The notes: generated by a model from the sequence alone, not told the origin. Shown: positions 5,346 through 52,130, numbered from the stretch's first letter. The stretch: DNA of 55,434 nucleotides from a virus (IMGVR_UViG_3300033153_009453:1-55434), one strand, 5' to 3'. Translations and numbers: made by a program.

Positions 5346-7115
5346 TTATTCTAAAGGGATAGTATTCTTTTGTGCTCAACTAATAGTTGAAACATTTTGA
5401 GATTGATTTCTTTGTGCTGGTGGAACAAAGCTAGGGTCAGCCTCAGTTCATTGAGTTCAAGCGTTCTGTTGTTTATGGTCTTGTAATATTGATTTAGCTG
5501 TCTTTCAACTATCAGATTGTTCTGAAAGCTTTTCATAGTCAAAGCCAAACTTATCAGTAACTAATTTAGCTAACTGGGTTGCTGGTACTGGTCTACTTCA
5601 ATCAGAATTTTGCATACTTCAAACTACTTGAGCGTATTCTAATGCTTCTTGTAATTCTCTTTCTTTACTGTTTCAAAGCATTGTTTCTACGATTGGCAAC
5701 ACGTGTATTTGTCATCCTAGTAGATGCTTAGTTATCTTAGCACTTCCATATCATCAACTGTCAGAAGTAAATACTCATTCAGCGTCAATACTTCAACCTT
5801 CTATAGGTATTTCTTGACTTCAAATAGAATGGAGGAACTGTATATTTGACATTCTAATTTCTGCAAGTCTTCTATAGAAACCCCAAGCATTGTCTTTAAT
5901 GTTTTTATTAATTCTTTTCTTTGCTGATTTATTTTTACCTGCTGTCTTTGTTGCAGTCTCTCAAGATGATAATATTTGAGACCTATAGTCTACTCATGTT
6001 TGAGCAATTAAGTCTTCATCTACTTTATTTTCAGCTGAAAGTAATTCATTAACCGGAACATTAGGAGAGAATTGTTTAATTCAGTTTATATCATCTGTTT
6101 CATATACTTCTCAAATTCAGAATTGCATTTCATCTTCTTCAAGTTCTGCTGTTCTATCTTTAAGTATAATTCATATAGATGATTTTATTCATCTTATAAG
6201 AAGCGTTCTTAACTCATTCTTATACCTCTCATTCTGCTCTGTGAGTTCAAATTCACCTATTCACCAAATCCTCTCCTGTGCCTTGTTGTCCAAGTAAAGA
6301 GAAAAAGGTAACATCTTATGAGGATAAGGAATTGGTATATTTTTAATTTCAACTCAGTTGGCTTCGATTATATACTCATCTTTCGCCGAGTTCCAATACT
6401 CTATTTCCATTACAGTATTATCAGATTGCATCTCTTCAAATTCATTCCCAGTAGTTCAAGCTATTGGTGCGAAATCTCAGGTCATCTTTTTTACTTTATC
6501 TAGATTTTTTACAAAGTTATCTCATTCTTTTTCTTTGATATAATCTGTTTTATCAAAGTATCTTATAACTGCAACTTCTGTTGAGTTTCTTATATTTGTT
6601 CAGTTTATAAAGAAGTTCTGAAATGGAATACATTCTGAATATATTCAAGAATATATTAGCTTCTCTTCTTCTTTAAAATCTATTCATGTTGGGTTTCAAT
6701 CTTCATCTTCTGTATAAAAAGGAGTTTTTACTGTTTGCCGAATATGCTTAATTCAGTCAAAGAATACTCCTGTTCAGTTAGTAGTAGAGGATTGAATTGT
6801 TTCTGAGATAGCTTCATCAGTATTTGAAAGTAACCGATGGTAATCCCAAACATGCTTGGCAACCTTCCTATTAGCTCTTCATTTATCATCCATTCAAACA
6901 AACAACCATTCAGGTTGAGCTGATAACAAGTCGGCGTCCTTCTGGTACTTGATAGTAGCTCATATCTGAGTTCTAAAATCATTCTTATCAGGGGGAGTAG
7001 CCTCCTTTGCATTAGCCTTATTTCTCCGATTAGTAGCTTGTACCTGAGTTATGTGGTTCTCTTTAAGAGCCATTAGATTAGTTAATCTCTCTGTAACATA
7101 CGAGTATTTTATCAT
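5346..7115 (-). CDS. Portal protein (589 aa)
   Basis: Long ORF with TGA=Gly downstream of TerL. Size, position and Q/P/T-rich C-terminal tail fit a P22-like portal. Confidence 0.75.
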
Positions 7116-7120
7116 TCTTT

Positions 7121-7816
7121 TTAATTATTTTCTATTCTATTTTTAGCTATATTGAAATATTTATTATTAAGTTCAATTCAAATAAATTCTCTATTTAAAT
7201 TTTTACATGCTACTCAAGTTGTACCGCTTCCCATAAATGGGTCTAGTACTATTCATCATTCTGGGCAACTATTTCTTATTATCTTCTCAGTAAAATCCAA
7301 TGGTTTAATTGTTGGGTGTCCCCATAATTTTTTATCTTTATGATTTATTAATCATAAGTAAACAGTTTTAGCATCCTCATAACTTTGAGGCTTATTGTAA
7401 GCTCATGGTTTTTTGAAATATAAACAGTATTCATTGTCTGTGAGATACTTATTACAATAACTTGGTATTGCATTTCTCTTATTCCATATCAGTATATCAA
7501 ATAGACATTTTTTTTGTAATACGAAATATTCAAAATACATTGGAATTTGTTTTTTATTACACCAGATATATATATTAATCTTGTCTTGTAGTTGTTCTGC
7601 TTTTCTTATGAACTCTTTAAAATTATATCAATTATCAATTCAAGCCTCATTCACTTGCTTTATTGAATTTTTAAACTTCTTAATTGTGTTTATACTTCCT
7701 CATCCCGAGGTAACGCTCACCTCATAAGGTGGGTCTGTTATAATAGTATCAACCTTTACTCATTGTTCTATTAATTTATCCATTTCCTCAAGACAATCTC
7801 AATTTATTAGTTCCAT
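7121..7816 (-). CDS. DNA methyltransferase, N6-adenine/N4-cytosine, beta class (231 aa)
   Basis: NGDCLEEM, catalytic IITDPPY, HPTIKP, SAM-binding VLDPFMGSGTTGVA and FIGIEL. Confidence 0.93.
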
Positions 7817-7828
7817 ATATATATTGTA

Positions 7829-9304
7829 TTAATATCTAATTGTTTTCTTAACTCTATTCATTCTTTTATATTTTTTCTTTAATTCTTTAGTTTCACTATG
7901 GGGTTTATATCAGAAGATAAAATAACGCAAAGCGTCTAACGCATCATCATTTAATTTTATTACATCCTCACTTCAATTTCATTTATAGGCATGGACTGAA
8001 AGCTCCTTAACTAAGCTCATACATTTCTCAGAGATGTACAGCATCCCATTTTTAAAGAGCTCATTAACTTTAAATATACCTGCTCTTCTATTTGATAGAT
8101 TATTTTCTCATTTGGAAAACTTATCAGCTGGAATAGTATTAAGTCAATAAACTTCTTTCAATTCCATTCTTGCCCTCTTGTCAGCCGTATCAGCAACTAT
8201 ATATTCTAGGTTGATATGGTACTCTATCTCCTTCCCTCTAACCTCATCCCTAAGTTCGCCCAATCCCATATTCTTTTGATAAATCATATCAAAAACATAT
8301 ATATGTCAATCCATATCAACTGCTATAAATAACATCGCCATTGGATGGGAAACTCAAAAGTCTAAGGCTCAGTAGAACTTAGTTCAGTTTCATAACTTTC
8401 TAGGATGGAAGTATTCAATTAAGTTTTTATTTCTTCTAAATTCATTATAAACAAGTCAACTTGGCGGAATAAACATTCAGAACCTTCTTATTTTCTGCTC
8501 TTCTTCACTCAATCATTCTAACCAAGTATGGTCTGCATACTTATTCTCTAAGCTGTCTACTTCTTTGATATATGTTTTAGACTTTACATTCTCGCTTCAT
8601 TGTCAGTAGAAGTAATCATGGACAGCTGGATTAAACTTTGTTGGTGTAAATGAAAGCAACATCTGGGTACGTCTTCATCTTGTTCATCTAAGAAGTTCTA
8701 TAAAAATATCCTCTCTTTCAGGTAACTCATCTAGATGTATAAAATCAGGATTACTTCACTCAAGTCTAGCTTGTCAGGCATCATATGTTCTGAACATTAT
8801 CTTGTTTCAATTCTTTAATGTGATTTCCTTTAATGTTTGTGTACTTCAATCTCTTTTAACTTTAGCTAGTTCATTTTTAGGGAGCTTAATTATATCTCAT
8901 ATTGTGTTGGTTCAAAGAAAATAAGGTTCTAAGTTTGTCTTAATACTATCAGAAGTTTTAGTTACAACTAAGGTTTGTTTACTTTCTCAAATGTAAGGTA
9001 GATTATACTTTTTACATCACTCTTTTCATAGGGCTAGAAGTATATCAATATCACAACTTACAATTGTTTTACCTGAACCATTCCCTCAAATAAACATTAT
9101 ATATTTATATTTAGGTACGGGTCAATTTCTTGCTCCAACAGCATCTATTACTTTCTGTTGATGTTCCTGCGGAATAAAATCAAGAATAGGGTAATGGAGC
9201 TTTCTTTTTTTAAGCTCTTCAATCAATGCTTGTATTCCAAGTCGTTTTTTAATACTTAAAGTATCTAAGTTAACTTTCTCTAAATCTTTTAAACTAAGTT
9301 TCAT
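7829..9304 (-). CDS. terL: Terminase large subunit (491 aa)
   Basis: Walker A IGGNGSGKT, Walker B IHLDE, nuclease ALDFGVSHP and C-terminal NDDALDALRY. Confidence 0.92.
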
Positions 9305-9343
9305 AAAGGGGAGGTGGTGTGGAGGGTTACTATTATACAGGTA

Positions 9344-9378
9344 AGTATAGTTCTAAGTTACTGTTTGTCAACTGTCTG
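9344..9378 (-). promoter_or_regulatory. Late promoter upstream of terL
   Basis: TTGACA-16 bp-TATACT on the minus strand. Confidence 0.75.
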
Positions 9379-9408
9379 ATAAAATAGCCAAAGTTATAAC
9401 TAACATAC

Positions 9409-9506
9409 TTTAAATCGTTTCTAAGGCACTCTAAACCTCAAGGGTTATAAGTATACCTAAATAGTACTAGAAGTTGTCTAAGGGGTATTAGAATGAGTTC
9501 TAGAGG
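9409..9506 (+). repeat. Dispersed ~85-95 bp imperfect palindromic element, copy 1
   Basis: AAATCGTTTCTAAGGCA is shared with 37756, and TATACCTAA lies 40 bp after AAATC as in the other two copies. Confidence 0.6.
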
Positions 9507-9544
9507 TATATCTACAGTAGACACCACACCACAGTAAATTAACA

Positions 9545-9820
9545 GCGAAACGAAGTGAAGCCGCAGCAACACTAACTATAGGCGAATAAACTAATTTCCA
9601 AATAAAGAGAAAGAGTAATACCTTTTTCTTCTTTCTTTGGACGATAGGGATAACTTAGTTTACTAAGTTATTACTATCGTATTACTTTATTCTTTTTAGT
9701 TAAGTTTAAAGTGAGTTATTATTTATATATATTATATTATATTATATTATATTATATATATTACTATACGGCGAATTTGGATTAACTCTTAAAGTTACGG
9801 CGAAACGAAGTGAAGCCGCA
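9545..9820. repeat. 21-bp direct repeats flanking a hairpin and AT-rich tract (candidate origin or packaging region)
   Basis: GCGAAACGAAGTGAAGCCGCA at 9545-9565 and 9800-9820. Inverted repeat ACGATAG..TAACTTAGT TT ACTAAGTTA..CTATCGT at 9641-9680, and an (ATT/TAT)n tract at ~9717-9762. Confidence 0.7.
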
Positions 9821-10002
9821 AAAGTAATACCTTGTAGATATTTATATATTTAACTTTTTTCTTTTACTTGGAAAATTAACTCTAAAGCCCCTTCCCCAAA
9901 AAAAAAGAAACTATAATAAAGTTAGAACTTGATGGGGGATATAGGGGGATATAGTTATATTTTAAATATAGTTATACCTATAAGTTATATAATATTACTA
10001 TT

Positions 10003-10114
10003 GCCATCCCTTTCGGCGATACCTGGAAGAGAGCCATCCCTTTGGGCGGGGCTTATGAGGTTTATACCTTGCTATAGCCATCGCAATTATTAAGGGGGCT
10101 ATTAAAAGCCATCG
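10003..10114. promoter_or_regulatory. GCCATC-containing iteron-like repeats
   Basis: GCCATC at 10003, 10033, 10077 and 10108. The first two extend as GCCATCCCTTT(C/G)GGCG. Confidence 0.5.
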
Positions 10115-10367
10115 TATATACTTAGTATAATTTCTACCCTAGATGAGCAGCCGAATTTCATTTTTTAAATTTTCCTCTGAAAGTGAAGGAAACTAAGACA
10201 ATACGGTACTTACATTCTATGCCCCCTCGGGGGGGGGTGACCAGCCCCATCATCATACGATGACTTGTCAGGTAGTCAAGGTCGCATGGTACTGCCAACA
10301 CTAGCCTATAAAAGCCCTCCTAGACAACAATCTACTCTTTGTCAAGCGTTTGATGATACTGCCAAGC

Positions 10368-10395
10368 TTGACAATCGTATTTTAGGTGGTATAAT
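10368..10395 (+). promoter_or_regulatory. Consensus sigma70-like early promoter
   Basis: TTGACA-16 bp-TATAAT. Confidence 0.7.
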
Positions 10396-10798
10396 GTATA
10401 GAAGATAGAATGGCTTGACATTTCATGAAGTTATGGCTTAACAAAGCTTTAAATCTTGCTCAATTTTAACCGTAATCAATAGCCTGTAAAACAACTAACA
10501 ATAAAACCACCAACCAGACGCTAGTCTTAATATGGCTATTCAAAGCCTCTCCATACCATAATACTACAACCTCCAACCACCTTGCTTATTGATACCAAGT
10601 CTCATTAGTAGTCTCACTAAGCTTTAGAGAGCCAAAACTGTAAGCGTATTACTGTAGTAATACAGTCCCACATTACCCAAATAAAAGAATAATGGTATAT
10701 GTCAAGGCGAACTTGTACAAATAGTTTGCAATTAAGTCAATAAAGAGTATACTTATATTAGTTAAAGGAAAGGAATAATATTTATTAATAATAACATT

Positions 10799-10888
10799 AT
10801 GGGAACAGTAAAGATAGCAATAAGTCAAGCTCAAACTAGCTTAAAAGTAAAGAAAACATTAAATAAATATTATACTCCTAAATTGTAA
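10799..10888 (+). CDS. Small early protein (29 aa)
   Basis: Follows promoter 10726 and the conserved leader. Shares N-terminal MGTVK with the 12011 ORF. Confidence 0.5.
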   Translation: MGTVKIAISQAQTSLKVKKTLNKYYTPKL

Positions 10889-11027
10889 AACTTTACAATA
10901 TATTCGCCGAACTGGTTTAATTACTAGACATGGTTTAACTCGGTTATAATAAAAGAAATATAAAAAGTTTTGCAATTAAAAGAATAAATGATATAATAGA
11001 GTTACTTTAATATTTAATTATAAGATT

Positions 11028-11192
11028 ATGGAAATAATAATAACATTCTGGTCACTAATATTGGGTAATATATTTATATTCTTTATTACTTTTCTTATTA
11101 CTGAAAATGAGGAGAAAATAGCTATAGTAATATTTCCTACATTCTTTATTTCAGTTTTTATATTAACTCTGGTTTGTTTAATTAATAATTAA
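11028..11192 (+). CDS. Small membrane protein with two hydrophobic segments (54 aa)
   Basis: Leader TAATTATAAGATT-ATG and two hydrophobic stretches. Confidence 0.65.
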   Translation: MEIIITFWSLILGNIFIFFITFLITENEEKIAIVIFPTFFISVFILTLVCLINN

Positions 11193-11196
11193 GATT

Positions 11197-11520
11197 ATGA
11201 GTGAGCAAGATTTAGTTTCTTTGATAGAAAGACAAGACAAGGGATGATTTACTTTATCTATCAAAGGTAATATGGATAGGTATATAGTGTGACTAACTCA
11301 TAATAATAATGTTTCGGCGAAAAGATTAAAAGCCCAAATTAAAGAGTACAATATATTAGATAATGTCAACCTTTGAGGTTGGATTGATAATGAAACTAAT
11401 AAGCAATATATAGACATTTCTACCTCATGTAGAAGCCTTGACTTTGCTAAGAAGTTAGGTAAGCTATATAAGCAAATTGCTATATGGGATATGGAAACAA
11501 TGAGTGAAGTGAGGATTTAA
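11197..11520 (+). CDS. Conserved phage hypothetical protein (107 aa)
   Basis: GGFT...GGWID..T...YIDIS...AKKLG...QIAIWD pattern seen in phage early proteins. Requires TGA=Gly. Confidence 0.7.
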
Positions 11521-11537
11521 TAATTAATTATAAGATT

Positions 11538-11912
11538 ATGGCAACTAGTAACATACAACATACAGGACTAGAAGAAAGTATACATTTTATTGAGGATGAA
11601 GAAAATGTAGAATATATACAAGAATGCGTGGATTTTGATAAATATATTGAGGAGGTGAAAGTATATGATAATAATTCTAAAGAATGGGAGGAATTAGATT
11701 TAGAAATTAAAATGAAAGGTTGTTACTATGAATGAGCTAATTTAATTATAGAAAGTTCAGAAGACATTGAAGAAATGGACTTAAGCTTGACAAGCGAAAG
11801 GAAGATTACAAGAGCAATTAAAAGATTAGAAAAAGTAATGAGTACATATTCAATAAAAATTAAATGTGTAGGTAGTTTTAGCAATTGAGAAACAATTTTT
11901 GAAAGATGTTAA
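11538..11912 (+). CDS. Conserved phage hypothetical protein (124 aa)
   Basis: Extends past TGA to give GCYYEGANL...FSNGETIFE. Confidence 0.75.
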
Positions 11913-12010
11913 AAAGAAAATTAAAAAAAGTTTTGCAATTAAAGAAAAAAAGTCTTATACTTAGTAGTAGATAAATAAGGAAAACAATTTTAGTTTAATA
12001 ATTATAAATT

Positions 12011-12268
12011 ATGGGAACAGTAAAAAAACATGAAAGATTTTTTCATACTCCTGAAAAGGATATATTTTCAGTTCACTCTAATGAGTGAGGAGAAACTAAA
12101 GAAATAGGTAAAGCTAAAGAGTTTATACTATACATGAATTTCATGTTAAAATATGATAACCACAAGGAGGTTACTACTATATGGGAAGCCTTAGATAGTT
12201 TTCAAGCATATTATGCTTGACCTGAGGTTTGAGGGTGAATGGAAATATTTATAACTTATTGAAAATAA
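12011..12268 (+). CDS. Hypothetical protein (85 aa)
   Basis: Open with TGA=Gly, after promoter 11933. Confidence 0.7.
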
Positions 12269-12495
12269 TAGTAAGGAAAACTTTACAATATATTCGGCGA
12301 ACGACTTATAAAGTAATTATTCTAATTGTCAAGCTAAAATACTTGCAATTAAAGTAAAAAGTCTTATACTACTATTAGTTCAATTGAGAAGCAGTAACAT
12401 TCTACCTCACTAATCATAATGTATTAGACAAGTATACAAGAGGTATAATAAAAAGAATAGCTTCTACTTAATAATAATTCTTTAAATAAAATAAT

Positions 12496-13086: not shown

Positions 13087-13174
13087 TAATATTAGTTTGT
13101 AATTATAAGAAAAATCCTTATAATTACTCTTAGTTAAATAAGGAAAACAATTTTAATTTAATAATTATAAGATT

Positions 13175-16247: not shown

Positions 16248-16258
16248 ATAAATTATAT

Positions 16259-16343
16259 GCCACCTTAGTTCAGTGGTAGAACAAAAGTAAGCCAGCTTTG
16301 AGCTGGATACTTTCGGTCGCTGGTTCAAATCCAGCAGGTGGCA
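16259..16343 (+). tRNA. Atypical tRNA-like RNA with extended anticodon arm (apical loop CT-TTG-AG, Gln-like)
   Basis: Acceptor GCCACCT/AGGTGGC, D arm GTTC-AGTGGTA-GAAC, T arm GCTGG-TTCAAAT-CCAGC. The anticodon arm is AAAGTA-AG-CCAGCTTTGAGCTGG-A-TACTTT. No encoded CCA. Confidence 0.7.
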
Positions 16344-16479
16344 ACATTTTAAATAAAGACAGTGATGGATTGTATAATTCTGCTTTTGCAGATTGGGTTA
16401 ATTTTCTAGTAAGGGTTGACCTGCACATTATACAATCCTTTTTGTTTTTATTTTTGATTTTATTTCTTAATAAGCTAAC

Positions 16480-16916: not shown

Positions 16917-17369
16917 ATGTGATTAATAGTCAAGCATATAATACAAGAAGTTCCTGCTTATGGAAGAGAAACAACCTCCTATAAAATAGGAAGACAAATA
17001 TTCAAGGAAAACCATAAAGATTATGATTTACATAGAAGTCTGTACTATATCTTACAGAGGTTACCTAAGGAGTACTTCTGTATTAAGAAAGATATAGATA
17101 ATCCCTTATGGGGAAACTATATTAAATGGCTTAAAGGAAAGCCTAATGGAACATGGGATATAGATAGTCCAAGAGGTATCTACTTTTGAAAAATGGCTGA
17201 TTGGGGTTATTTTCGGCAACGCACTTGTTGGGGGGAATTACTAACCCTCAAAGATTGGGATTATATAATTAATCCCCCTAAAAGGAGGTTAAGAAGAATA
17301 TGAAATACTTCTTTAAGGAGAGGATTAAGGAAATTATTAATTAATAAAATAAAAAGATGGAAGGACTAA
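16917..17369 (+). CDS. Hypothetical protein (150 aa)
   Basis: Open with TGA=Gly; Trp-rich central part. Confidence 0.65.
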
Positions 17370-18719: not shown

Positions 18720-18926
18720 ATGAAAAAAATAATAATACTAGCTATATTAATAGCTACATTAACTAGTTGTTGAAAAGATTGTACATTCTATAATATGTCT
18801 AATGAAGACATAATTAAAGAAGTTAAAAAGTGTAAAGAAGCTGGAATGTGACATGAGTTTAATAAAGTCTCTTGACGGGGATTTTGTCCTAGACCTAAGG
18901 AGGTTATTTGTTCAGGTTATTTATAA
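18720..18926 (+). CDS. Putative lipoprotein (68 aa)
   Basis: MKKIIILAILIATLTSC-G lipobox. Confidence 0.65.
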
Positions 18927-19841: not shown

Positions 19842-20676
19842 GGATTACCAAGAGGATTTAATATTTAATAAATCTAAGGATTGCTCTTTTGCAATAGAGT
19901 TAGAAATAGGATTAACCTTTTACGAAAAAGAAATAGAGTGACTACATTCTAATAGAATAAGGGAAAGTTCTAATATTATGGAACTAAGAGACCTTCACCT
20001 TAGAGACAAGAAAACAATTTCTAAGGTTTATAAGAAATGTCAAGAATATTATAAAGATAAGTTTCCATTATGAGCTAACGGTCATAATAGTTGAGGAGTA
20101 CATTTTCATGTATTTTGAGATTTTGATATATTTGAAGATACTAGTATTAATAAATTCAATTCACTTTTAATTAATTGCCCATTTTTTATGAAGCTTTATA
20201 ATTGAAGTTTTTATAATAGACAAAATAGGATGCACAGATTTGAAGATTATAGAGATGTAGAAGATAACTCTAAGGGATTATGTGTGACTTGTAATAGTGT
20301 TGGCTCTTTTGAATTTAGATGTAATAATGTTATTGATGGGAGATTATTAGGGTATTACCAATGAGTACTATTGGCAGCAAAAAAGAAAATTAAATTTGAA
20401 AAAGTTTCCAATAAAATTGAAACCTACTCAAAAAGATGAGATACTAAAGGATATTGACAACGGAATGAGGGTAATCATTCTATACTTAAATGAACTAAAT
20501 ATGAGGATTGAGTGACTGATATACCAATTGAAGATTGTGAGGGTATAAAAGTCTCTCAAGAAGATAAAGGTATAATTCTAAGGAATGTGGAAATTATCGT
20601 TTCCCTTCTAAAAGAAGAGGGATTAACTAATTCTTCTAAGGCTTTCGGGGAATATTTGGATGAATTTAATTTTTAA
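19828..20676 (+). CDS. Putative amidoligase (COOH-NH2 ligase, glutamine-synthetase-like fold; 282 aa)
   Basis: FAIELEIG, SGGVHFHVF and SFEFRCNN motifs. Confidence 0.65.
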
Positions 20677-20686
20677 TTATAAATAA

Positions 20687-21082
20687 ATGGGTAAAATAAT
20701 TTGAGTATATGGTACTCTAAAGAGAAGTGAAGGTAACTATTCTGTAATGGAAAGGGCAAAAGGTGAGTATATAGGAGATGACTATATTAGATTTGACAAA
20801 GTCTGAGATTGCGGCTTCCCTAAAGTTAAACTTTCAGCGGAAAGTAATAAATATTTACTTGTAGAATTGTTTGAAGTTCCAGAAATAGGAGTTGAATGAC
20901 CCTTAGATGGATTAGAAGGATATAATCCTAATTCTTCTTACAATCATTACAATAGAGTTAAGACAGTAACTCTAAAATGAAAAGAAATAGAAGTATATGA
21001 AATAGCCTGAGATACAGAAGATTGTTGTGAGAATTACTTTTCTCATATTGATTGAGAGAGACTATTTTATAATCGGAAATAG
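20687..21082 (+). CDS. Gamma-glutamylcyclotransferase (AIG2/GGCT family; 131 aa)
   Basis: GVYGTLKRSEGN, VELFEV and LDGLEGY...YNR. Confidence 0.85.
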
Positions 21083-21164: not shown

Positions 21165-22217
21165 ATTTGCTGAATTGCCATCGTTAGATGAAAAAAGAGG
21201 CTTGCAGAAGCTTTAACTAACCAAGTAGATAGATGATTAGAATGAATGGGGGTAATAACCCCTAAGTGTTATTATAGAGCTTTATATAAGAAGCTTAAAA
21301 ATTATCTTTCTTATATAAAGAATTGTATTGAAGAAGATAGTATTTATATACTCCACCATAGAAAAGCCTCTGTAGGAGCTATATGTTTAGATAATGTCCA
21401 CCCTTTTGAGGGGGAGAGCTTTATTTTAGTTCAAAATTGAACTATTAGAAACTTTTATAAAGCATATAAAAATATTTATTGAAAGGAAACTGATACAGAA
21501 ACACTTCTTTCTTACTTGGAAGAAAAAGCTTCCTGTTTGAATGATATACCAATCATTCTCAAAGAGCTTTCAGAAACCTATAAGGAAGATTTTTGAATAA
21601 TTATAATTAAATCTAGAATTGAGGATAAAATATTATTCTATACTGATGGTAGTAGAGAAAGTTATATAGATATAAATACCACCAATAATACTATAAATGG
21701 TATTTATAACTATAATACCCATTCAGGGTATGAAAATACAGGACATATAGTGCTTTCCTATAAGGGGGTAATCTTAGAAAATACCTTTAAAAGTTTTAAT
21801 AAGAAAACATTTTATTTATATACTTCTTGAATACAGAAGAGGAAGAATGCAATAACTACTAGAACCTATTATGGGGAAGGTTGGAAGTGGGATTATCTCT
21901 CACGAAGTTATAAGTATACTCCCCCTAAAAAGGACAAGAGTAAAGTAGATGAATATGAAAAAGAAAAGGAAAAGATTAGAAACGAAGTTTCATACTTATT
22001 TGAAGAGTATAAGGCTTCTGACATGTATTGGATTATATGGGATTTTCTTGAGAATGTATGGGAGACGAAGCTCCCAACCGAGATTAATGCAAAACGGGCT
22101 TTTGTAGAATGGTATTATAATTTTAAAATTATGGATGAATATAAAAAATACCAATGTATTATGGAAAGAATAGAATGAGAGTTCTATGAAGCTTTCAAAA
22201 TTATCTTTAATAAATAA
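21165..22217 (+). CDS. Class II glutamine amidotransferase (Ntn-hydrolase; 350 aa) with apparent ATT start
   Basis: (ATT)-C-G-I...DRGLEGMG, HHRKASVG, NVHPF, VQNGTI and ETDTE. There is an in-frame TAG at 21135 and no ATG between it and the Cys. Confidence 0.8.
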
Positions 22218-25757: not shown

Positions 25758-26545
25758 ATCTAAGTCAAGCTCACCTTGCTCAGTTCTGATTATCAGTTAT
25801 TGATTGAATATTATTAGACTATATAATTAGAGCTCATACTTGGGCGAAAGATATTATAGTTGACGGAAGGAAATATTATTGGATTAATATGGGAAAAATA
25901 ATATCAGACTTACCAACTCTTGGGATTTCTAATGAAAATAGTATGAGAAAACATATTAGTAAATTAGTTAATCTAGACTTTCTAGACCGCATAACACAGG
26001 GGAATAAATCATACTTTGCTCCTACTGATAAGGTAGAGGAATATTGTGTAGGATGACCGCCATCCCCAAAAGGAGGGCAGGTATCGCCCAATAGGATGGT
26101 AAGTATCGCCGAACGGCGTGACAATAGTAATATTAATAATAATATTAAATATATATCTATTTCTGTTGCCCAAGTAAAAGAAAAAAAGGGGGAATTGATT
26201 AAAGAGTTAGAATGGTTACTTTCTTCTTTACGAGGACAAACAGACCTTAAAGATGTTGGTGCAGATGATATAATAGTTCTATGGAACTCTTATAGTTCTA
26301 AGTTTAAATTACCTAAGGTTAATCTAGATAATCCTAAAAGTTTAACTATTAGGAAAATTAAAGAGGCTTGGGGGAAATTAAAGTCTGAATTTACTAAGGA
26401 AGAGTTCAATGTTGGACTACAGAATTATTTTAAGGAGATAGAACAAAGGAAACCTGATGGTAACTATTATACCCATAGGTTCTCTTTATTCAGCTTCCTA
26501 ACACAAGTAAACTGAATTAGAAAGTTTATGTTAATCAATATTTAG
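25742..26545 (+). CDS. Putative replication initiator (N-terminal winged helix, lambda O-like layout; 267 aa)
   Basis: GRKYYWINMGKIISDLPTLGISNENSMRKHISKLVNLDFL resembles a wHTH. Internal iteron-like repeats and an AT-rich tract; lies upstream of the primase-helicase. Confidence 0.65.
26050..26160 (+). promoter_or_regulatory. Candidate replication origin: three ~22-bp iteron-like units plus AT-rich tract
   Basis: AGGATGACCGCCATCCCCAAA / AGGAGGGCAGGTATCGCCCAAT / AGGATGGTAAGTATCGCCGAAC, then an almost pure A/T run. Confidence 0.5.
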
Positions 26546-27016: not shown

Positions 27017-28690
27017 ATGGGAAAAACAACAATAGAACAATTAAACCAGAAGGATGTCGCCGAAATACTTGGAGCTTTACAAATAAAATTCTCTAAGAAA
27101 TGAAGTACTTTTTCTCTTTATGAGGGCAATAAGTCTACAGGTTGATGGAAGGCCTCAATAGATTGAGAGTTTAAAGACTTTAGTAATAAATGAAGAGCAG
27201 AAGGTGATAGATTAAAGTTTATAGCCTCCTACTTAGGAGTTTCTACTCACGAAGCCTTGAATTGGGTAGAAGAAACTTTCTGAATTAAATGAGATAAATG
27301 AGGTAATGAAACAAGAGGTTCACCTCTTACGAATAAACGGAATAAATTTAAGCCCCTTAATGAGGAACAAATAGAATACCTTTCCTCTAGAGGTATATAT
27401 AAATACGATTGGTGTAGAAGTTATAAGAATAATATTTGTATTCAAATATGTACTGGTAGAGAGAATATAACCTCTCTACAAAGTAGAAATATAGGTGAAT
27501 GAAATAGATATTATGTAGAAGCCTCCACAGATAGTGATGGCTTATTTATCCATAAGTTAGATTATTCTAAGAAGGCTTTAATTGTTGTTGAATGAATGAC
27601 AGATTATTTAAGCTTAAGGCAATATACAACTAATGTTGTAGGTCTTGTAAACGCTAAGAATGATGGTCAAATACAAATGATTAAAGACTTGTCTAATGAG
27701 TTTGAAATATACTTTGTGCCTGATAATGATGATGCAGGGAAAGTAACAATAGAGAAGTTTAATAAGTTATGATTGCATTATAATTTGTTTAGGTTAGAAC
27801 CTTATTGAATGAAGGACATTAATGATGTATTAGTTAACTATTGACTTTGAGAAGAGATACTAACTATAATATTTACTGAAAGTGAGAAACCTTTAGGTAA
27901 CTTAGAGTTAGCTAGAGTAAAAGCTTTAGAGTACAAAGCATTATACGAAGAGAATGATTGACATTTAGGTTTCCCTTCCTGATACGAGCCACTAGATAAG
28001 TATACGGATGGAGTTATAAGATGAAAGGTTTATATGATTATGGCTTATAGTAATGTGGGTAAGACAAGATTTGCCTACTCCTTACTAAAAAATATGATTA
28101 AGCTTAAAAAGAGAATACATTTCTATTCCTTAGAAGTTGATACTGGGATGTTGTTTCTAGAGATTATCCAGTCTATATACTGACGGAATAGAGGGAAAAC
28201 CATGGAAGGCTTGAAAGATTTAGATTTAACTGAACTTGAGAAATGTATAGAAATACATGATGATGTACGCTCCTTAGATAAGATTGTACAATCTATTAAG
28301 AACGAAAAACCCGAAGTAGCCTTTATAGACTTTGTCCAGAATATAGAGGAGAAAGGTTGAGAGTATGAGAAGATGACTAATATCGCCCTAACCTTACAGA
28401 AGCTAGCTATATTTACAGGAACTACTATATTTCCTTTAAGTCAAGTAGCTAATGAAGGTAGGTTTGCTTGAGGTGATGCTTTACCTAAATGAAGTTGAGC
28501 CTTATTTGCTAGTAGTGATGTAATCTTTACCCTTTGGGCGAAAGACTGAGAGAAGTACCTTACAATTAGTAAGAATAAGTATTGAAAGGCAAATGTGAAT
28601 TATATACTTGATATAGATTATCAAACCTCCACCTTTAGGATGGCAGAGGATAATCTAGAAGAAGTTTGAGGCTTTAAATGATTAACTTAA
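27017..28690 (+). CDS. Bifunctional DNA primase-helicase (Toprim plus DnaB-like; 557 aa)
   Basis: Primase motifs IVVEGMTDYLS, PDNDDAGK and KDIND. Helicase motifs AYSNVGKT, FYSLE, AFIDFVQ, LSQV, KGSG and SKNKYG. Confidence 0.9.
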
Positions 28691-29250: not shown

Positions 29251-29802
29251 ATGGATAAAGTTATTGTTATCACCTGAGTTAGCTGTAGCGGTAAGACAAC
29301 CTTACAAGAAGAGTTAACAAGAAGATGATATGAAAGCCCTATAAATTTTACTACTAGGTCTCCTAGAAGCAAAAACTATTCCTCAATAGATGAGGACTGA
29401 GATTACAACTCTAAAGAGTTTGGAGAATATATATTCCTCAATAAAAGTAATTTCCTTAAGAAGCTAAGAAATTGAGATTTTCTTGAACATGTTCAGTACT
29501 GTAAAAACTGGTATTGAATAAGTAAATTTCTACCGAATTGAAAGGTAGTATTGATACTTGACCCTATTGGGAGAAATCAAGTACTTCGATACTTTAGTGA
29601 TATTTGAGTAGAAGTAGTTACTTATTACTTAGAAATAAGTAAGAAAGTTCAAGATGAAAGGTTACAACAAAGGAAACTTGATGATAAACAAGTTATATCA
29701 AGAAAAAAAGACTTTGAACGGTTTAGTCCTACAAATAAGTGTAGAAAGCTAAATTGAACCGTAGCTGTCAAAGAATTAGCTGATATAATAGAAAACGCTT
29801 AA
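29251..29802 (+). CDS. gmk: Guanylate kinase-like nucleotide kinase (183 aa)
   Basis: ITGVSCSGKTT, FTTRSPR and FLEHVQYCKNWYG. Confidence 0.8.
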
Positions 29803-30269
29803 TGGGAAACTTTAGAGAAGATTTAAAAAAGGGAGAAGAAATGGAAGAGGTAGTAAGAGAATTACTTAACACTAAGTGATTTAGCTTACTAAAAAATCCA
29901 CAAAATAAAGAGATGGATTTGTTAATTATAGAAAAGTGAATTGAGGTCAAATTTGATGAGTATGCACAATATAGTGGTAACTTTTATATTGAATTTGAAA
30001 GTAACTGAAAGCCTTCTTGAATATTTAGAGAAGAGACGGTACATTTAGAATATTGGGCTCACACCGACGGAATAACACTAAATCTCTTAGAATGAGATAA
30101 ATTTAAAGAGCGGGTAAGTGATAAGATAGGAAAATGTAGAGATAACAAGTCTAACACCTCTAGAGGATTTAGAGTTGTAGAACAATGAGGTGACGGTTGA
30201 AGAACCAAAGGATTGCTAGTGCCTGTAGAAAAACTACAAAGTCAAGCAAAATATATTTTTAATTTATAA
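29802..30269 (+). CDS. PD-(D/E)XK family endonuclease (155 aa)
   Basis: FREDLKKGEEME, MDLL, IEVKFD and GNFYIEFESNGKPSGI. Confidence 0.7.
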
Positions 30270-31375: not shown

Positions 31376-31452
31376 GCTCTCTTAGCTCAATGGAGTAGAG
31401 CGTTCGCCTTGTAAGCGAAAGGTTATCAGTTCAAGTCTGATAGGGAGCTCCA
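31376..31452 (+). tRNA. tRNA-Thr(TGT)
   Basis: GCTCTCT/AGGGAGC acceptor, TTCGC-CTTGTAA-GCGAA anticodon arm, ATCAG-TTCAAGT-CTGAT T arm, encoded CCA. Confidence 0.93.
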
Positions 31453-31806: not shown

Positions 31807-31880
31807 AGCGAGCTATTGTAACGGTAGCATAACAGTCTCATAAGCTGTAGGATGTGGTTCAACTCCACAGCTCGCCACCA
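31807..31880 (+). tRNA. tRNA-Met(CAT) (A1:C72 mismatch, possibly initiator-like)
   Basis: AGCGAGC/GCTCGCC acceptor, ACAGT-CTCATAA-GCTGT anticodon arm, TGTGG-TTCAACT-CCACA T arm, ACCA end. Confidence 0.85.
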
Positions 31881-36567: not shown

Positions 36568-36904
36568 GAAGAGTAAGAATATCTCACTTAATATGAATTG
36601 GTATAGGAATGTCCATTACCTTATAAATAATAAGATGAAGAAAGAGTTTAAGGTTCTTATTTCCTCTCAAATAGAATGAAAAGTACTTAAGCCTCCAATT
36701 AGAGCTGAATATACACTATATTGGAGTAGGTTGAGTGATTTAGATAATCGGGGAGCTGTTGTAACTAAATACTTACAAGATGCTTTGGTTGAATATTGAG
36801 TTATAGAAGATGATAATTTTAATTTCATAGTAGAGAATAATTATAAAGTTTGAGGGAAGGATAGAGATAACCCTAGATTTGAGGTATTATTAATAGAAAT
36901 ATAA
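36521..36904 (+). CDS. RusA-like Holliday junction resolvase (127 aa)
   Basis: LNMNWYRN, SDLDNx, KYLQDALVEYGVIEDDN and NPRFEV. Confidence 0.8.
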
Positions 36905-46109: not shown

Positions 46110-46126
46110 TTGTTTTTAAATTAAAA

Positions 46127-48532
46127 TTATAAAGCATCTAAAGCACTGTAATCTCCCTCTTCTTCCTCTTCTTCTTTTTCAGCCTTCTTAGCTCTTTCAG
46201 CTATCTCGTCTCCTATTATAGCTTTTATAGTTTCAACCCCAGCCTTCTTGTCAGGGTATTTTTTGAAATATCTAAAATATTCTTCTCTTACGTTTGATGG
46301 ATTTATTTTGTCCATCACTTTTGATAATTCTTTAGTACCTTCTATGTCCTTCTCTTCTCTTGCTTTCTCTTTATTCTTTTTATCTGCAAACTCTTTTACA
46401 TTTTTAGTTGGACGCTCCCCTTTAAGGACACTATCCAACATACTTAATAATTGACTACTTGATGTTAAAGCTCTATTTCAAGCAACTCATTTATAAGTAC
46501 TTTCATTACCTGCATCTTTTGGTAGACTTGCCCATATTCCGCTTATTCTCTTTTGGAATTGTTGAGGTGTAATCTTTCAGCTCTTAAAGTCATTAAAGCT
46601 TGAACCCATTAGCTTCATCGCCATTTTATCTTGTAATTCAGGTGTAAACTTTTCATTTCAAGTTAATCCCATATCTCTAATTAAGCCTCTTAATGTTCAA
46701 CTAACTATTTGATATTTCCCCATTGCTCATCCTATATAATTCTCTCCATCAGATGATAAGTAAAGTCTACTTTGTTGAAACTTTTGTAGTTCCTTTAGGG
46801 TCATATTAGTAATCTTTGTTTTAGTTTGACTTCAAGCTCAAAATAGAGCTTCATAGTTTCAATTGGTTCATTCAGCACTTGAAATAAAATCTAGTAACTC
46901 ACTAGTTCAACCACTTCATGCAGTATAATCTTGGTTTTCAACATCAAACTGTCTTGCTTCTTCTCTAGCCTTAGCTTGGTCAAGTGCATATTCTGCTCCG
47001 AATTTAGCTTTGTCAAATGCAAACTTCCTTTCCTCTAAGGAAACAGCACTTTGTCTTGCTTTGTATTCAGGTGTTTCACTTAGGACTTGCTTTGTAGCAA
47101 TAGCTGTAGCCTCTTCTAGAGTGCTTCAACCTTCCATTAATCTGTGGACATTACCGTTTATTTCTGCTCTAGTCTCTTCCGATGTAATATAACCTTCCCC
47201 CATCATTTTAGATACATTAGCTGAAACGGATTTCGCTATTGAACTTTTCTTAATTGAAGTTAAATCAATTAAGTTTAATCAAGCCTTTCTTGCTAAAGTA
47301 TCTAATTCAACATCATTCATTTCAAATAATGCTCAGCTAGTTATTTTATCATTTATATTCTCTTTTGCTAAACCTTGGTCTTTTTCAATTTGGTTTTGTA
47401 TGTCTATTTGATATTTATATCATCTATCTTGAATTTTAATCATATCATCTATATGTTGGCGTTCTAAGTCTCCAACTTCACTTCTATAATCCTTTAATAT
47501 CCCATCTATTGCTTCCTCCTTCTCTTGAGTACTTAATAGTAAACTCTTAGTAGTATCTTGTATTCTTTTTTCTGCTTGTTCATCTAAATCATCTAACTTA
47601 TCAGAGTAAGTATTTATTGTTTGATTGATTAATCAAGAATATTGCAGATTAGCTTTCTCTAATTCTATACCTACCTTAGATATTTCCACTCATGTAAAAG
47701 CTTCATTATAACTCATCTTAGCTTTTATTTGAGCTATAGCAGCTATTCAGTCAGTTGCTATTTGTTGAGATTGGTTTATAATTCAAGAACTAAAACCTAA
47801 TCATAACTTTTGATAAGCCCAAGCTGATTGTTGTCTTTCTATTTCTATTGCAGCCTCTGCTTCTATAATTGAGTTCTCATTTTGTATTCTCTGGTACTCT
47901 TGTGAGGCTTCTAATTTCTCTCTATCAGCCTCAGCTAACCTCATTGATAAGTCTTTCTCTTTCTGTAATCTTTCAACCTCTCAAGCTTTTTCATCTTCTA
48001 ATCTAACCCTCCTTTCATCTTCTAATAAAGATAGTTTTTCATCTTGTTTCGTTAATAAATCTTGTAATTCTTTTGCATGGGTCTCTGTTCTTTCTATATC
48101 AGTTTCTTTAGCTGTTTCCAAATCAGATATTTTAGTTTCTTTTAATTCTTCCAACTTCTGTCAAGCTGCTGTATTTTGTGCTAATATTTGTTCCGCCGTT
48201 CATTTAACGTCTCAAGGTTCAATTGTAGGAGTTGAAGGTGCATCAACTGTTCCCGTAGGCGTTGTAGTGTCTTCTCCAACTAAAGAAGAAGGAGTAACGG
48301 GGGTATCGGCGACCTTTAATCATGTTCAAGTTGCTGCTATTTCCGCTGCATCATTCCTACTTCCAGCTGTTTCTTTTATATCTGGGGTTAATTTAAATCA
48401 TTTTCCTACTACCTTACGGGTACGTTGAACTGGTTTTACTGTCGCTGGTTTTGGCGGTAATACTTTATTTGTATCTTTCCCAGCTCACGGAATAGTTGCA
48501 GTTACTTTCTTTTTTCCTCTTACTACTACCAT
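46127..48532 (-). CDS. Internal virion/ejection protein with lambda-R-like lysozyme domain (801 aa)
   Basis: Long coiled-coil, then LLDFISSAEGT...AMGKYQIVSGTL...FTPELQDKMA...IWASLP (muramidase/transglycosylase motifs) at ~46500-46900. Confidence 0.75.
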
Positions 48533-48546
48533 ATTTTATTTATTTA

Positions 48547-50364
48547 TTAATAATAATTTGATTGTGAAACTCTTAAAGGTTTAATTCTAAAGTTTACACT
48601 TGAAACCTCCACATATCAATCTCATTCATGGGTAAGTCTGAACTGAAATATTCTTGCATCATCAAATAAGTCAATCTTTTCTCTAAATCTATTGGTAACT
48701 CAAGTTGCCGCAGAAATTATTCTTTTAGTTGGGTTAGCTCCTGTTCAAATCTCTAAAGCTACTCAGTCTGCTAGTATTTCAATTTCTAGATTTTTAGTAC
48801 CTCAAATTCAAGTTATATCTCATATAACTTCTACTTCTTTTCCCCTAACATAATCTACTTCATCTATAAAGGCGTACTCCTTACTTGTTCTAGTTCAGTC
48901 TGTAGTCCATCAATCATTATCTTCATATAGTTTTCAGTTAGTTCACTCTATAGAAAAGTAGCATCATTTAGCTACTCATACATTCTTAGTTGTTTCTTTT
49001 ATCCAACTTTTCTCATCAACATTATAACAATATATAATATCGTTAATTGTCGGTGTTCATCATTCCTCTACTGTTGTAAACCTTAGGTTAGGATAACAGT
49101 AGTAAAGCCTTTGCTGTATTCAATCTATATCGCTGTCTTGGTTGTTAAACCATTCATCTACTTCATCACTCACTGCGGTGTCTCTAAGGGTTGTTAAGTT
49201 CTGCTCATAACTTAATCTCCTAACCTTTTCAGTAATTCAATCATAGTAAAATATATCTTGTTCTACTTTTACTATACAAGCCTTGTCTTTAGCTCAATTA
49301 TTTGTAATTTTATTTACATTGAAATTAAAACTTGTTCAAGTATCAGTTTCACTATTTGAATACCATATTTCATCTTCTTTGAATATATACAATCAATTCT
49401 CTCATACTATTAATCAAGCAATATTACCATCTCATCATACCCTTTGGGCTCATGCTGAATAGGCTGTAAAATCCATTACTAGATGGGGCTCTGATGGAGT
49501 TGATGTTTTAGAAAAGTATAATACATTACTGTCTTCTAAAAAGTACACAAACTTACCATTATAATACACTCAACCTTTAGCTTTTATTAAATCTGAACCA
49601 TTGTACATATTAACTCAAAATAGACTATCTCAGCCTCATATATTTTGATAATATTGAGTATTTCATCCATCTGTAATTAAAATTAAATCATCTCAACTTT
49701 TAATTATTTCAGGGTTAGTAACATCTCAACTAAATTGTCAAAGTCCCACGTCTCAAGTATTAGCTCAAGTATCTGATACATCAATTCTTCAAGCATTTTG
49801 CTTAGCCCAAATAAATAATCAATCTAATTGTGTTAATCAAGGTGTATGGTAATAACTTCATACTTCACTATCAATATTTGTATCAATAATATCAGTTACC
49901 AAAGCTTCATATACATCATCCTTAGTATCTCAAGCTTGAACTGTATAACTCGAAGCTATAGGTCAATAACTAAAGTCTACTCATGTTACCGTAATTTCAT
50001 ATACCTGTCAAGCACTTATACTTCATGGGATATTCCAAAACCAAGAATGTATATTATTATCATTATTAAGCCAAATATTATTAACTCACTTTGTAATCTC
50101 TAAAAAGCTACCATAATGTGTCATATATACATTTTGGTCTATTATGTCAACACTTCTAATTTCATGGTTACCTATTTTATTTATTTGGTTCAGCTCATAT
50201 TCTTTATAGCCTTGACTATTTATAAGCTTATTTCAAAAAAAGTTCCAATTCTCTTGAGCTAAAGCTTGTATATCTTCTATTTCACTTGGATAATCTCTAA
50301 GGTTAACACCTCATGTTAAGTCTTTAAGTCTAAAGTCCTGAAATCAATGGGTATATCAAGTCAT
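48547..50364 (-). CDS. Tail nozzle/stabilisation protein (P22 gp10 / T7 gp12-like; 605 aa)
   Basis: N-terminal DLTGGVNLRD, beta-rich, with LYFSKTS and LYIFKE. Lies between the adaptor and ejection genes. Confidence 0.65.
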
Positions 50365-50377
50365 ATTTCTTTGTTAA

Positions 50378-51451
50378 TTATAAATCATCATAAAATCATT
50401 CTGGTATAATTTCTATTGTTCTATATTCTAATCCTCTATCAAAGGTAGAAGCAAATCAAATTTTACTTTTCGTTTTCCTAGTTCACTTAGCTTTATAAGC
50501 TTTATATTTCCTGTACTCTTTTTCAAAAGCATTCTCGTAGTATTGCCATCTATCGTCTTCTCTAGAAGCTAATAATCTATATACTACATCATATACAGGT
50601 ACTCTCTTATATCTGTAAGGAAGGTTTAGTATATCTTCATCTTTAGTCATTATAGCGTAATCAGGAACATACTTTACGACTAATGTATATTCAGTTGAAC
50701 TATATGGAAGATAAAGGTACTCATTTCCTTGGTAGTCTTTTATAATTGTAAATCTATCTATAGTATCCATATAAAAATCTCTACTGTCAATATGTTCTAA
50801 TTTATATCAATCCACATATACTTCACTTACTCTTTCTACTCAATATGGTATTCTATGTCAAACAATCATTCTGTCAAAATCATCTATCAAATCATTTCCC
50901 GCTACTTCAAATTTAATTCAGTCATAATCATAATAATTATAATAAATTCATTTTCAAACTAGAAAGCTTCACATTATAGCTAATGGATAACTTTCAGCTG
51001 TAGTGATACTTACTGTATTCTGGTCTTTCTCAACCGTTAGTCAGTTTAATCATTTTAATGAGTAATGCTGTATGTTACCTCTTTCAGGTACTCAATCTAA
51101 CATTGTTCAAATTGTCTGATTTAACTCTCTTCTTATTTTAGGTTTAGGATAAATAGTAGATGAGGAAGTTCTTCAAATCTCTTCCCAAACTTCATCTATT
51201 AAATCTCACAATGTAACTTCGCCGTTACCTAAAATATCCCTTTCTTCCCTAGTAAAAGAAGAAATAGTAATTGAAGTTACTGGGGCGACTGTTACGGTTA
51301 CTGTATCATGGATGAACGTATAAGCTGTTCATATATCACTTCAATCAACAATTATATTACTTATATAACCTATATACTCTTCTAGAACATATTCTTTATT
51401 TGCTCCATCTATATCTCAAGTTGGAACTTCATTCTCTATTAGTTTTAACAT
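50378..51451 (-). CDS. Head-to-tail adaptor-like protein (357 aa)
   Basis: TLGDLIDEVWEEIG N-terminal helix and LNLPYRYKRVPVY; lies just before the nozzle gene. Confidence 0.55.
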
Positions 51452-51470
51452 ATTTGTACTTTATTTGGTA

Positions 51471-51554
51471 TTTAAATCATTTCTTAGAGCTTCTAGGAGG
51501 TTTTAGGACACATTGTACCTAATCATTCTAAAAGCCCCTTAGAAAGCATTTAAA
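51471..51554 (+). repeat. Dispersed imperfect palindromic element, copy 3
   Basis: TTTAAATCATTTCT ... TGTACCTAA ... CCTTAGAAAGCATTTAAA, with the same 40-bp AAATC-to-core spacing. Confidence 0.55.
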
Positions 51555-52130
51555 TTATCTTTTATTTTCTATTACTTCTCTAGCTCTCGCTATTTCAATT
51601 AACTCTTTAGTTTCTTGTTCTGTAAGAGGATTATTTCCTTCGTGAGAATTAAATATTGGCTCAATTCAAGCTTGTTTTAAAGCTCTCTCCATTATTCAAG
51701 AATATTTACTTTGTTCCCCTTGTTTAGTCTTTGCTTTGTCTGTAGTTCCTTCTTCTTTATAAGGTATTCAGTTATCTTGAAAGTGTGGTAAATCCTTTCA
51801 CCGTAAATCAAAACCCCAAACAATTCAATATTTGGCTGCTATATTAGCTATTTTAGTCCACTCTTTTATATTACTTGGATATAGTTCCTTTCACCTAAAG
51901 GCTATATCGATTGCCTTTCTTGTCTTATGGTAAGAGTTTAATGTCCAAGTAACCTTATTTCACTTCCTAGTTCTTCATTGTCCATATAAATATATTTGCC
52001 TTTCTTGGCTTCTATATGTTTCAGTAATGAATACTTCCTTTCAGGCTTCCTTAATAAATAACTCTACTTTCCTTTTAAAAGAGGGTGTAAGCTCATTAAT
52101 ATCTCGGCAAGGTGTTTTTATGTTAGTCAT
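51555..52130 (-). CDS. Endolysin, peptidase M15 (L-Ala-D-Glu endopeptidase-like; 191 aa)
   Basis: CRDINEL, ITETYRSQERQ..LY.QGRT, SYH...AIDI and GIVWGFDLxGKDLPHFQ. Confidence 0.9.

Follow-up and report, generated by a model that had tools for sequence, protein, structure and literature searches.

How does a phage that already translates UGA, a stop codon, as glycine (Gly) decode the codon CGG? The question is raised by the viral genome IMGVR_UViG_3300033153_009453, a complete record held in a single contig of 55,434 bases with about 30% G+C (this whole stretch is called the window below), for which a model working from the sequence alone (the original prediction) had proposed that CGG encodes tryptophan (Trp) while CGA stays arginine (Arg). 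From homologous columns, close relatives and bacterial genomes with a similar code, we conclude that the phage very probably reads UGA as Gly and CGG as Trp, with CGA, CGU, CGC, AGA and AGG remaining Arg. The ten codons on which the proposal had leaned (nine CGG, one CGA) are all in frame where it had placed them.

The window is a tailed phage with TGA as a sense codon. Its table 25 open reading frames (ORFs) form two blocks on opposite strands, with Pfam matches to a large terminase, an M15 endolysin, a Toprim/DnaB primase-helicase, RusA, an RNA ligase, an anaerobic ribonucleotide reductase, a guanylate-kinase-like protein, and GGACT and GATase proteins; PHROGs gave no match for six of the nine window proteins searched. 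The 48 ORFs of at least 100 amino acids (aa; 14,069 codons) contain 600 in-frame TGA codons, and in the portal and endolysin, where TGA columns were compared with standard-code homologues, Gly is the commonest residue, as translation table 25 requires. The same ORFs have 138 TGG codons and a strongly skewed arginine box (CGG 14, CGA 6, CGT 12, CGC 11, AGA 378, AGG 101). Short credible ORFs contribute two more CGG codons, giving 16 in frame, spread over early and late genes; three others, in small ORFs overlapping real genes, were excluded from the tally. About one tenth of the Trp codons of the phage would thus be CGG (16 CGG vs 138 TGG), and its usage per 10,000 codons is 4.3 for CGA and 10 for CGG. 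We also considered whether CGG could be a by-product of a TCG(C/G)CGA palindrome, and rejected this, as no in-frame CGG stands directly before CGA.

Homologue evidence covers 10 of the 16 credible in-frame CGG codons. Conserved Trp columns account for four of them (portal aa30 and aa94, endolysin aa110, primase aa108) and aromatic or hydrophobic columns for two; at two more a close relative has TGG, one column is variable, and one site is lysine (Lys) in its sole informative relative. No Arg column is among them. The columns are thus mostly Trp or aromatic in homologues, as the original prediction expected, and neither Arg nor Lys predominates. The sites in the portal protein, the endolysin and the primase-helicase are:

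7026..7028, minus strand: CGG, portal aa30, a conserved Trp column
6834..6836, minus strand: CGG, portal aa94, a conserved Trp column
6738..6740, minus strand: CGG, portal aa126, aromatic in near relatives and variable in distant ones
51801..51803, minus strand: CGG, M15 endolysin aa110, a conserved Trp column preceding D-x-P-H-F
27338..27340, plus strand: CGG, primase-helicase aa108, a conserved Trp column
28184..28186, plus strand: CGG, primase-helicase aa390, a variable column

A caution applies to all counts of Trp in this group of phages. Homologues in the protein database are stored with TGA translated as Trp (the window's own endolysin is there as a 95% identical entry), and the portal homologues have a consensus W at positions where the window has TGA for Gly, so the source translations must have read TGA as Trp. 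A database W is therefore ambiguous, and we relied on codon-level loci or on proteins with few W; in TGA=Trp entries the Trp counts are inflated, and the alignments mislead unless the DNA is checked.

For the portal protein, a protein database search gave 43 homologues, and a pattern scan of IMG/VR with alignment gave 80 loci at codon level. In-frame TGA occurs in eight; the remaining 72, which lack TGA in the match and are 23-30% identical, were taken as standard-code loci in a codon-aware alignment. A tblastn search against GenBank phages found no portal match, and single-protein scans of IMG/VR returned one close portal relative (L001) and none for the primase. At portal aa30, which lies outside every search pattern used, the 72 standard-code homologues have TGG 55 times, Ala 7, Tyr 3, Ile 3, Leu 1 and a gap 3 times, with no Arg, and TGG is found in seven of the eight TGA-recoded relatives; the 90% relative L001 also has TGG there. 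At aa94 the same homologues have TGG 60 times, Met 5, Phe 3, Cys 1 and a gap 3 times, a count that is somewhat biased because the column lies within one search pattern (W or R allowed); the eight recoded relatives have TGG in six cases and CGG in two. Residue 126 is less uniform: the 42 family proteins have Y 11, R 8, W 5, H 4, F 3 and others 11, and in the DNA of relatives the codon is CGG in L001 and L002, TGG in L003, and TAT, TTA or AAG elsewhere.

At endolysin aa110, TGG stands in all 80 homologous loci (75 without in-frame TGA and 5 recoded), which came from an alignment scan of the near subfamily with search patterns that included neither its CGG nor its CGA site. At the protein level, 119 homologues have W 51, K 45, S 12, N 4, R 3, G 3 and Y 1 at aa110, and all 51 W come from the nearer subfamily, where D-L-W stands ahead of D-x-P-H-F. 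For the primase-helicase, the search returned 150 representatives, of which 48 are aligned at aa108 (W 33, R 4, F 3, Y 1, others 7); the four with R are the closest, TGA-recoded proteins. A set of 20 related metagenome loci, in 19 of which TGA occurs in frame inside the match, has TGG 9, CGG 4, CGA 4, TTT 1 and a gap in 2 at this position.

Four further CGG codons in other genes have homologues:

36749..36751, plus strand: CGG, RusA-like protein aa77, directly after the D-L-D-N motif; a hydrophobic/aromatic column
26114..26116, plus strand: CGG, aa125 of a replication-initiator-like ORF (25742-26545); TGG in a roughly 90% relative (L107)
29719..29721, plus strand: CGG, guanylate-kinase-like protein aa157; CGG in L107 and TGG in L109 (54% identical)
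30111..30113, plus strand: CGG, aa120 of ORF 29754-30269; CGG in L107 and AAG (Lys) in L109

At RusA aa77 the 22 homologues have F 11, W 4, L 4, I 2 and R 1, the single R belonging to a TGA-recoded close relative; a PDB search with RusA gave no match. Position 125 of the replication-initiator-like ORF is AAA in the distant locus L007, in a poorly conserved linker. Individual support does not extend to every example cited in the original prediction: the codon at 30111 is Lys in its one informative relative, and those at 18876, 21074 and 32548 found no informative homologue. The remaining six sites are in frame:

17214..17216, plus strand: CGG, aa100 of ORF 16917-17369; no homologue found
18876..18878, plus strand: CGG, aa53 of a lipoprotein ORF (18720-18926); no homologue with DNA found
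20461..20463, plus strand: CGG, aa212 of ORF 19828-20676; no homologue found
21074..21076, plus strand: CGG, aa130 (the penultimate residue) of a GGACT-like ORF, outside the Pfam match at 7-108
22095..22097, plus strand: CGG, aa284 of a GATase-like ORF; a gap in L110
32548..32550, plus strand: CGG, aa33 of ORF 32452-32682; no homologue found

As a control, we averaged residue frequencies over the standard-code portal and endolysin homologues only, using columns filled in at least half of them. Over the four CGG sites of the two proteins the mean frequency of W is 0.67, and at their single CGA site that of R is 0.99. For comparison, AGA columns average R 0.40 (22 sites), AGG columns R 0.37 (8 sites), TGG columns W 0.39 (8 sites), TGA columns G 0.30 (42 sites, Gly being the commonest residue) and TAT columns Y 0.37 (21 sites). 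Judged by these columns, the placement of CGG on Trp is beyond chance.

The fate of individual codons in close relatives points the same way. L001, from IMG/VR, shares about 90% nucleotide identity with the window over 68-9864, and L107, which comes from a metagenome, spans the replication genes, with proteins about 87-95% identical; together they give 4,158 aligned codons, 3,156 of them identical. The eight window CGG codons compared are CGG six times and TGG twice in these relatives and nothing else, and the 29 window TGG codons are TGG 26 times, CGG twice and a Phe codon once, so that every change of CGG (4/4) is an exchange with TGG, in both directions. About 153 AGR and CGY codons of the window correspond to 143 Arg codons, 1 CGA, 4 Lys, 2 Asn, 1 Leu and 2 Cys, and never to CGG or TGG. 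The three window CGA codons compared are CGT, AGA and Ala, once each, and one window AGA is CGA in L107. By these fates, CGG is interchangeable with TGG, and CGA with the codons for Arg.

The two Arg-to-Cys cases are probably out of frame, in an ORF overlap. With its predicted TTG start, ORF 29754-30269 runs into the last part of the kinase ORF (29754-29802, plus strand), and we rejected the CGT at 29760 and the CGC at 29796, both in this overlap, as real Arg codons; L107 has TGT and TGC in their place, which suggests that translation really begins later, probably at the ATG of residue 17.

The phage has six CGA codons in its long ORFs:

52104..52106, minus strand: CGA, endolysin aa9, a nearly invariant Arg
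9242..9244, minus strand: CGA, large terminase aa21, an Arg column
29587..29589, plus strand: CGA, kinase aa113; AGA in L107 and GAG in L109
22997..22999, plus strand: CGA, aa257 of ORF 22229-23605; AGA in L110
26231..26233, plus strand: CGA, aa164 of ORF 25742-26545; GCT in L107 and AAA in L007, uninformative
21903..21905, plus strand: CGA, aa220 of the GATase-like ORF; GAC in L110, uninformative

Arg is the aligned residue for four of the six, the other two carry no information, and Trp or aromatic columns are not represented. Endolysin aa9 is an Arg codon in 79 of the 80 loci (CGA 31, AGA 28, CGT 10, AGG 7, CGC 2, CGG 1; the remaining one is AAG), and at the protein level R 114 and K 4 are found among the 119 homologues. 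At terminase aa21, Arg is encoded in five of seven relatives (CGT in L001, AGA in L002-L005; GTA in L006 and CAA in L007), and at kinase aa113 the best pairwise PDB alignment, which covers both kinase sites at low confidence, has Lys. Trp does not predominate at the CGA columns, in agreement with the original prediction that CGA stays Arg. By conservation, then, the phage has the pattern of a code in which CGG alone passes to Trp.

Which tRNA would read CGG in such a phage? ARAGORN and Rfam together found three transfer RNA (tRNA) genes in the window, none of them with anticodon CCG or UCG:

31376..31452, plus strand: tRNA-Thr(UGU), found by ARAGORN and Rfam
31808..31876, plus strand: tRNA-Met(CAU), found by ARAGORN and Rfam
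16258..16345, plus strand: a tRNA-like gene with an over-long anticodon arm (ARAGORN "???"; RF00005, 57.8 bits)

In the tRNA-like gene, the acceptor, D and T arms are normal, and an insert of 20 nucleotides with a second helix replaces the 7-nucleotide anticodon loop; ARAGORN assigns it no anticodon, and it shows neither CCG nor UCG. The reassigned codon is thus used in phage genes without a cognate phage tRNA, and since the phage lacks a tRNA for CGG, it would have to use a host tRNA(CCG) charged with tryptophan, presumably by the host tryptophanyl-tRNA synthetase. In this scheme the phage code would drift along with that of the host through synonymous changes between TGG and CGG.

Candidate tRNAs of this kind exist in bacteria. 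A relative of the portal protein (51% identical) lies on a 3.5-kb contig (L081) of a metagenome-assembled genome (MAG) named "Patescibacteria group bacterium" (G001), which encodes a tRNA(UCA) whose acceptor marks are of the Gly type, a tRNA-Trp(CCA), Arg tRNAs (GCG, CCU) with A73, and a tRNA(CCG) with A1:U72 and G73 that match its own tRNA-Trp. We found tRNA(CCG) in 8 of 201 sampled genomes of the UGA=Gly class to which G001 belongs, in all cases with A1:U72 and G73 and with compensatory changes in the stems, so that a tRNA(CCG) with these Trp-type marks, which the original prediction had suggested seeking in candidate hosts, does occur in this class; the link of these genomes to the window phage is an indirect one. 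The pair A1:U72 and G73 are among the criteria of Shulgina and Eddy for provisional Trp identity; the D-loop is unusual, with no clear equivalent of position 20. The tRNA(CCG) genes of the eight genomes (L106, L129-L135) mostly have an A.C mismatch at 31:39, beside the anticodon loop, and one additional pair at the stem's opposite end, which may bear on the question of a four-base-pair anticodon stem raised in PMC13092985.

Two of the genomes of this class are single contigs, G070 (1,184,529 bp) and G023 (1,489,121 bp), with 34 and 37 tRNA genes, respectively. Both carry Arg(UCU), Arg(CCU), Arg(GCG), a Trp-type tRNA(CCG), Trp(CCA) and tRNA(UCA); neither tRNA(UCG) nor tRNA(ACG) was found in either, and ARAGORN on the whole of G023 agrees. 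The CGA codon is among the rarest in both (per 10,000 codons, CGA 1.3 and CGG 1.3 in 400 kb of G070, CGA 4.4 and CGG 3.0 in G023). When 108 pairs of their orthologs are compared, CGG stands opposite TGG in 11 of 14 cases and opposite Leu, Met and Ile once each; CGA (n = 9) stands opposite Arg in four, Lys in three, and Ile and Gly in one each. The rpoC genes of four genomes have 30-51 TGA codons in the main family-model match and no CGA, and the single CGG sits on the Trp of the R-P-E-W motif. By these comparisons, the predicted code of the G070/G023 lineage is the same as that of the phage: UGA=Gly, CGG=Trp and CGA=Arg.

Some other tRNA genes of these two genomes are atypical. At positions 25-98 of L155 (G070:C1:71030-71150), ARAGORN calls a tRNA with anticodon UUA ("tRNA-Stop"), which is the weakest Rfam tRNA match of G070 (42.2 bits) and may represent a suppressor-like tRNA or simply an erroneous prediction. 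At L179 (G023:C1:256890-257230) there are three atypical tRNA genes, two of them given four-base anticodons by ARAGORN (ggaa, tttg), adjoining a Val(UAC)-like tRNA.

Does the code, then, point to the host? By inference the host would belong to this UGA=Gly lineage, probably to the group of tiny uncultured bacteria that shares the phage code. The phage tRNA-Thr(UGU) has 80-86% identity with tRNA-Thr genes in five of the candidate-class genomes. The idea that the code could pinpoint the host lineage holds in part: it narrows the search to a type of lineage, but the host itself was not found.

Several observations weigh against the reading of CGG as Trp and CGA as Arg, besides the search bias at portal aa94. 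Searching left 6 of the 16 CGG sites without informative homologues. Portal aa126 is Pro 26 times, Lys 17 and Arg 8 in the 72 distant standard-code homologues; primase aa390 varies among the 150 representatives (K 32, I 27, V 16, Q 10, L 10, R 10, W 1, and others); and the codon at 30111 is Lys in L109, its sole informative relative. In the endolysin, the 119-protein alignment places the second Trp of the farther W-G-G-x-W subfamily one column before the CGG, and the pairwise PDB alignments with 2vo9 and 6akv likewise shift the Trp of the far subfamily one column earlier. The support of that subfamily is decided by the placement of a one-residue gap, and the near subfamily supports Trp in either alignment; the argument from the M15 motif W-G-G-x-W hinges on that gap. 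There are only six CGA codons in the phage, two of them without information, and the matching-code genomes G070 and G023 have no known CGA decoder, leaving CGA as Arg unexplained by known wobble rules. Finally, a comparison of window positions 1-20000 with 401 genomes of G001's class gave only related G001 phage contigs and short AT-rich matches, and a comparison of 16001-36000 and 36001-55434 with five genomes gave only the tRNA-Thr similarity and one more G001 phage contig.

The missing decoder leads to the alternative that survives best, namely that CGA is effectively unassigned in the host and that the six phage CGA codons are slow or leaky, inefficiently read Arg codons, perhaps regulatory near gene starts. 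The tRNA sets of G070 and G023, the rarity of CGA there and its absence from the four rpoC genes would fit this, as would the position of two of the six phage codons at aa9 and aa21. It is nevertheless unlikely in our view: CGA is retained at the invariant Arg of the endolysin, G023 uses CGA 172 times, on Arg or Lys columns, which implies that something reads it as Arg, and the two genomes represent the candidate class only. One could instead suppose a novel decoding route in these bacteria, in which CGA is read as Arg with no encoded tRNA able to pair with it, and to which an arginyl-tRNA synthetase (ArgRS)-like enzyme and the long-armed tRNA of the phage might add something in arginine-box decoding during infection; this is a tentative suggestion, for which we would claim a real but minor chance. 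The enzyme in question is encoded by an ORF of 378 aa at 34625-35761 (plus strand) that resembles the catalytic core of ArgRS and is much shorter than a normal ArgRS; it matches Pfam tRNA-synt_1d (E 1.4e-6) and TIGR00456 argS (E 3.6e-10, 38.8 bits, where the cut-off is 261), has visible H-A-G-H and K-M-S-S-R motifs, and gave no PDB or PHROG match. It is an intriguing gene for a phage with one arginine codon fewer in its code.

A second possibility is that CGG is read ambiguously, part Trp and part Arg, or is in transition, so that conservation reports the majority reading only. Arg would be tolerated at 30111, where a relative has Lys, and at 28184, which varies among K, I, V and R, and according to Shulgina and Eddy (PMC8629427) ambiguous translation is excludable by experiment only. 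The exchanges speak against it, since not one CGG changes places with an Arg codon in the 4,158 phage codons or in the 108 bacterial ortholog pairs, and so do G070 and G023, both from the candidate host class, in which no Arg-type tRNA able to read CGG (UCG or CCG) was found. We consider it improbable.

That the phage uses the full code of the Absconditabacteria, with both CGA and CGG as Trp, is very improbable. The code itself is published (PMC8629427), and more distant members of the phage family (L112, L113, L115, L116, L119 and L121) do carry CGA on the primase Trp columns aa44 and aa108, as in that code. In the window, CGG is on Trp columns but CGA is not (0/6 on Trp or aromatic columns, four on Arg columns), its closest relatives exchange CGA with CGT or AGA, and the tRNA(UCG) that the Absconditabacteria code would use was found neither in the phage nor in G070 or G023. 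Other relatives add further variety: L107, L110, L114 and L122 have CGA on Arg columns, and L006 has both CGA and CGG on Arg columns. Judging from these columns, there are at least three types of arginine-box code in one phage family: CGG alone as Trp (the window phage, L001 and L107), both as Arg (L006), and both as Trp (the six more distant loci listed above). Since related phages differ in this respect, the arginine-box code could be a cheap marker for the branch of UGA=Gly bacteria that a phage infects.

That CGG is an ordinary Arg codon, its matches to Trp columns arising by chance or from real W-to-R substitutions (a single transition separates CGG from TGG, so that one mutation suffices), is hardly conceivable in view of the four conserved Trp columns and of the two-way exchange with TGG in close relatives, where other Arg codons never stand opposite TGG.

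With CGG read as Trp, annotation under table 25 or table 4 writes Arg where the proteins have Trp. This affects about 10% of the tryptophans of the phage, several of them at conserved sites of the portal, endolysin, primase and RusA proteins, and a wrong Arg at CGG degrades homology searches and structure models. For evolution, the phage would be a case of a virus following a sense-codon reassignment layered over a stop-codon one, and the cells with the matching code raise the question of what reads CGA. The practical uses are in annotation and in host typing based on the code.

How does this code compare with known ones? The bacterial code was largely predicted before by Shulgina and Eddy (2021, eLife, PMC8629427). 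They describe the Absconditabacteria (SR1) code, with UGA as Gly and both CGA and CGG as Trp, and predict that some Gracilibacteria read CGG as Trp. A 2026 paper in Nucleic Acids Research and a 2026 preprint repeat the bacterial cases, and a 2026 PeerJ paper assigns the users of table 25 to GTDB class JAEDAM01, with orders Absconditabacterales and BD1-5. A literature search of limited scope found no paper on a phage with CGG as Trp. That such a doubly altered code is rarely if ever documented in a phage, as the original prediction put it, agrees with this search; the variant with CGG alone has a precedent in what is predicted for some Gracilibacteria.

Similar to the window phage, the Absconditabacteria combine UGA as Gly with CGG as Trp, a low G+C content and rare CGN codons, and like the matching bacterial genomes they have a tRNA(CCG) with G73 and A1:U72. 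They differ in CGA, which is Arg in the phage, and in relying on tRNA(UCG) together with tRNA(CCG), whereas the matching genomes lack tRNA(UCG) (PMC8629427). Reassignment of CGG alone to Trp is reported for Anaerococcus and for the RFN20/Onthovivens Bacilli (PMC8629427; PMC13092985). These cases share with the phage and the matching genomes CGG as Trp and CGA as Arg; they have a dedicated tRNA(CCG), for which the Trp-type tRNA(CCG) of G070 and G023 (not present in the phage) is a candidate counterpart, and they lack tRNA(UCG), as do these two genomes. In the Bacillota, however, UGA is still a stop and CGA is decoded by tRNA(ICG), whereas in the present code UGA is Gly and a decoder for CGA is not apparent.

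Among phages, those of Gracilibacteria and Absconditabacteria that use code 25 (mBio 2023, PMC10746230; Borges et al. preprint, 10.1101/2021.08.26.457843) resemble the window phage in having in-frame TGA as Gly and in being linked to these candidate phyla radiation (CPR) hosts; in both reports a second reassignment was seemingly not considered. A further parallel is given by two phage assemblies from the baboon gut, predicted to read AGG as Met without a tRNA for AGG (PMC8629427). Like the window phage, they use the reassigned arginine codon of their host, have no tRNA of their own for it and rely on host tRNAs; they differ in the codon, the amino acid and the host phylum, and in the window phage the altered sense codon adds to an already altered stop codon.

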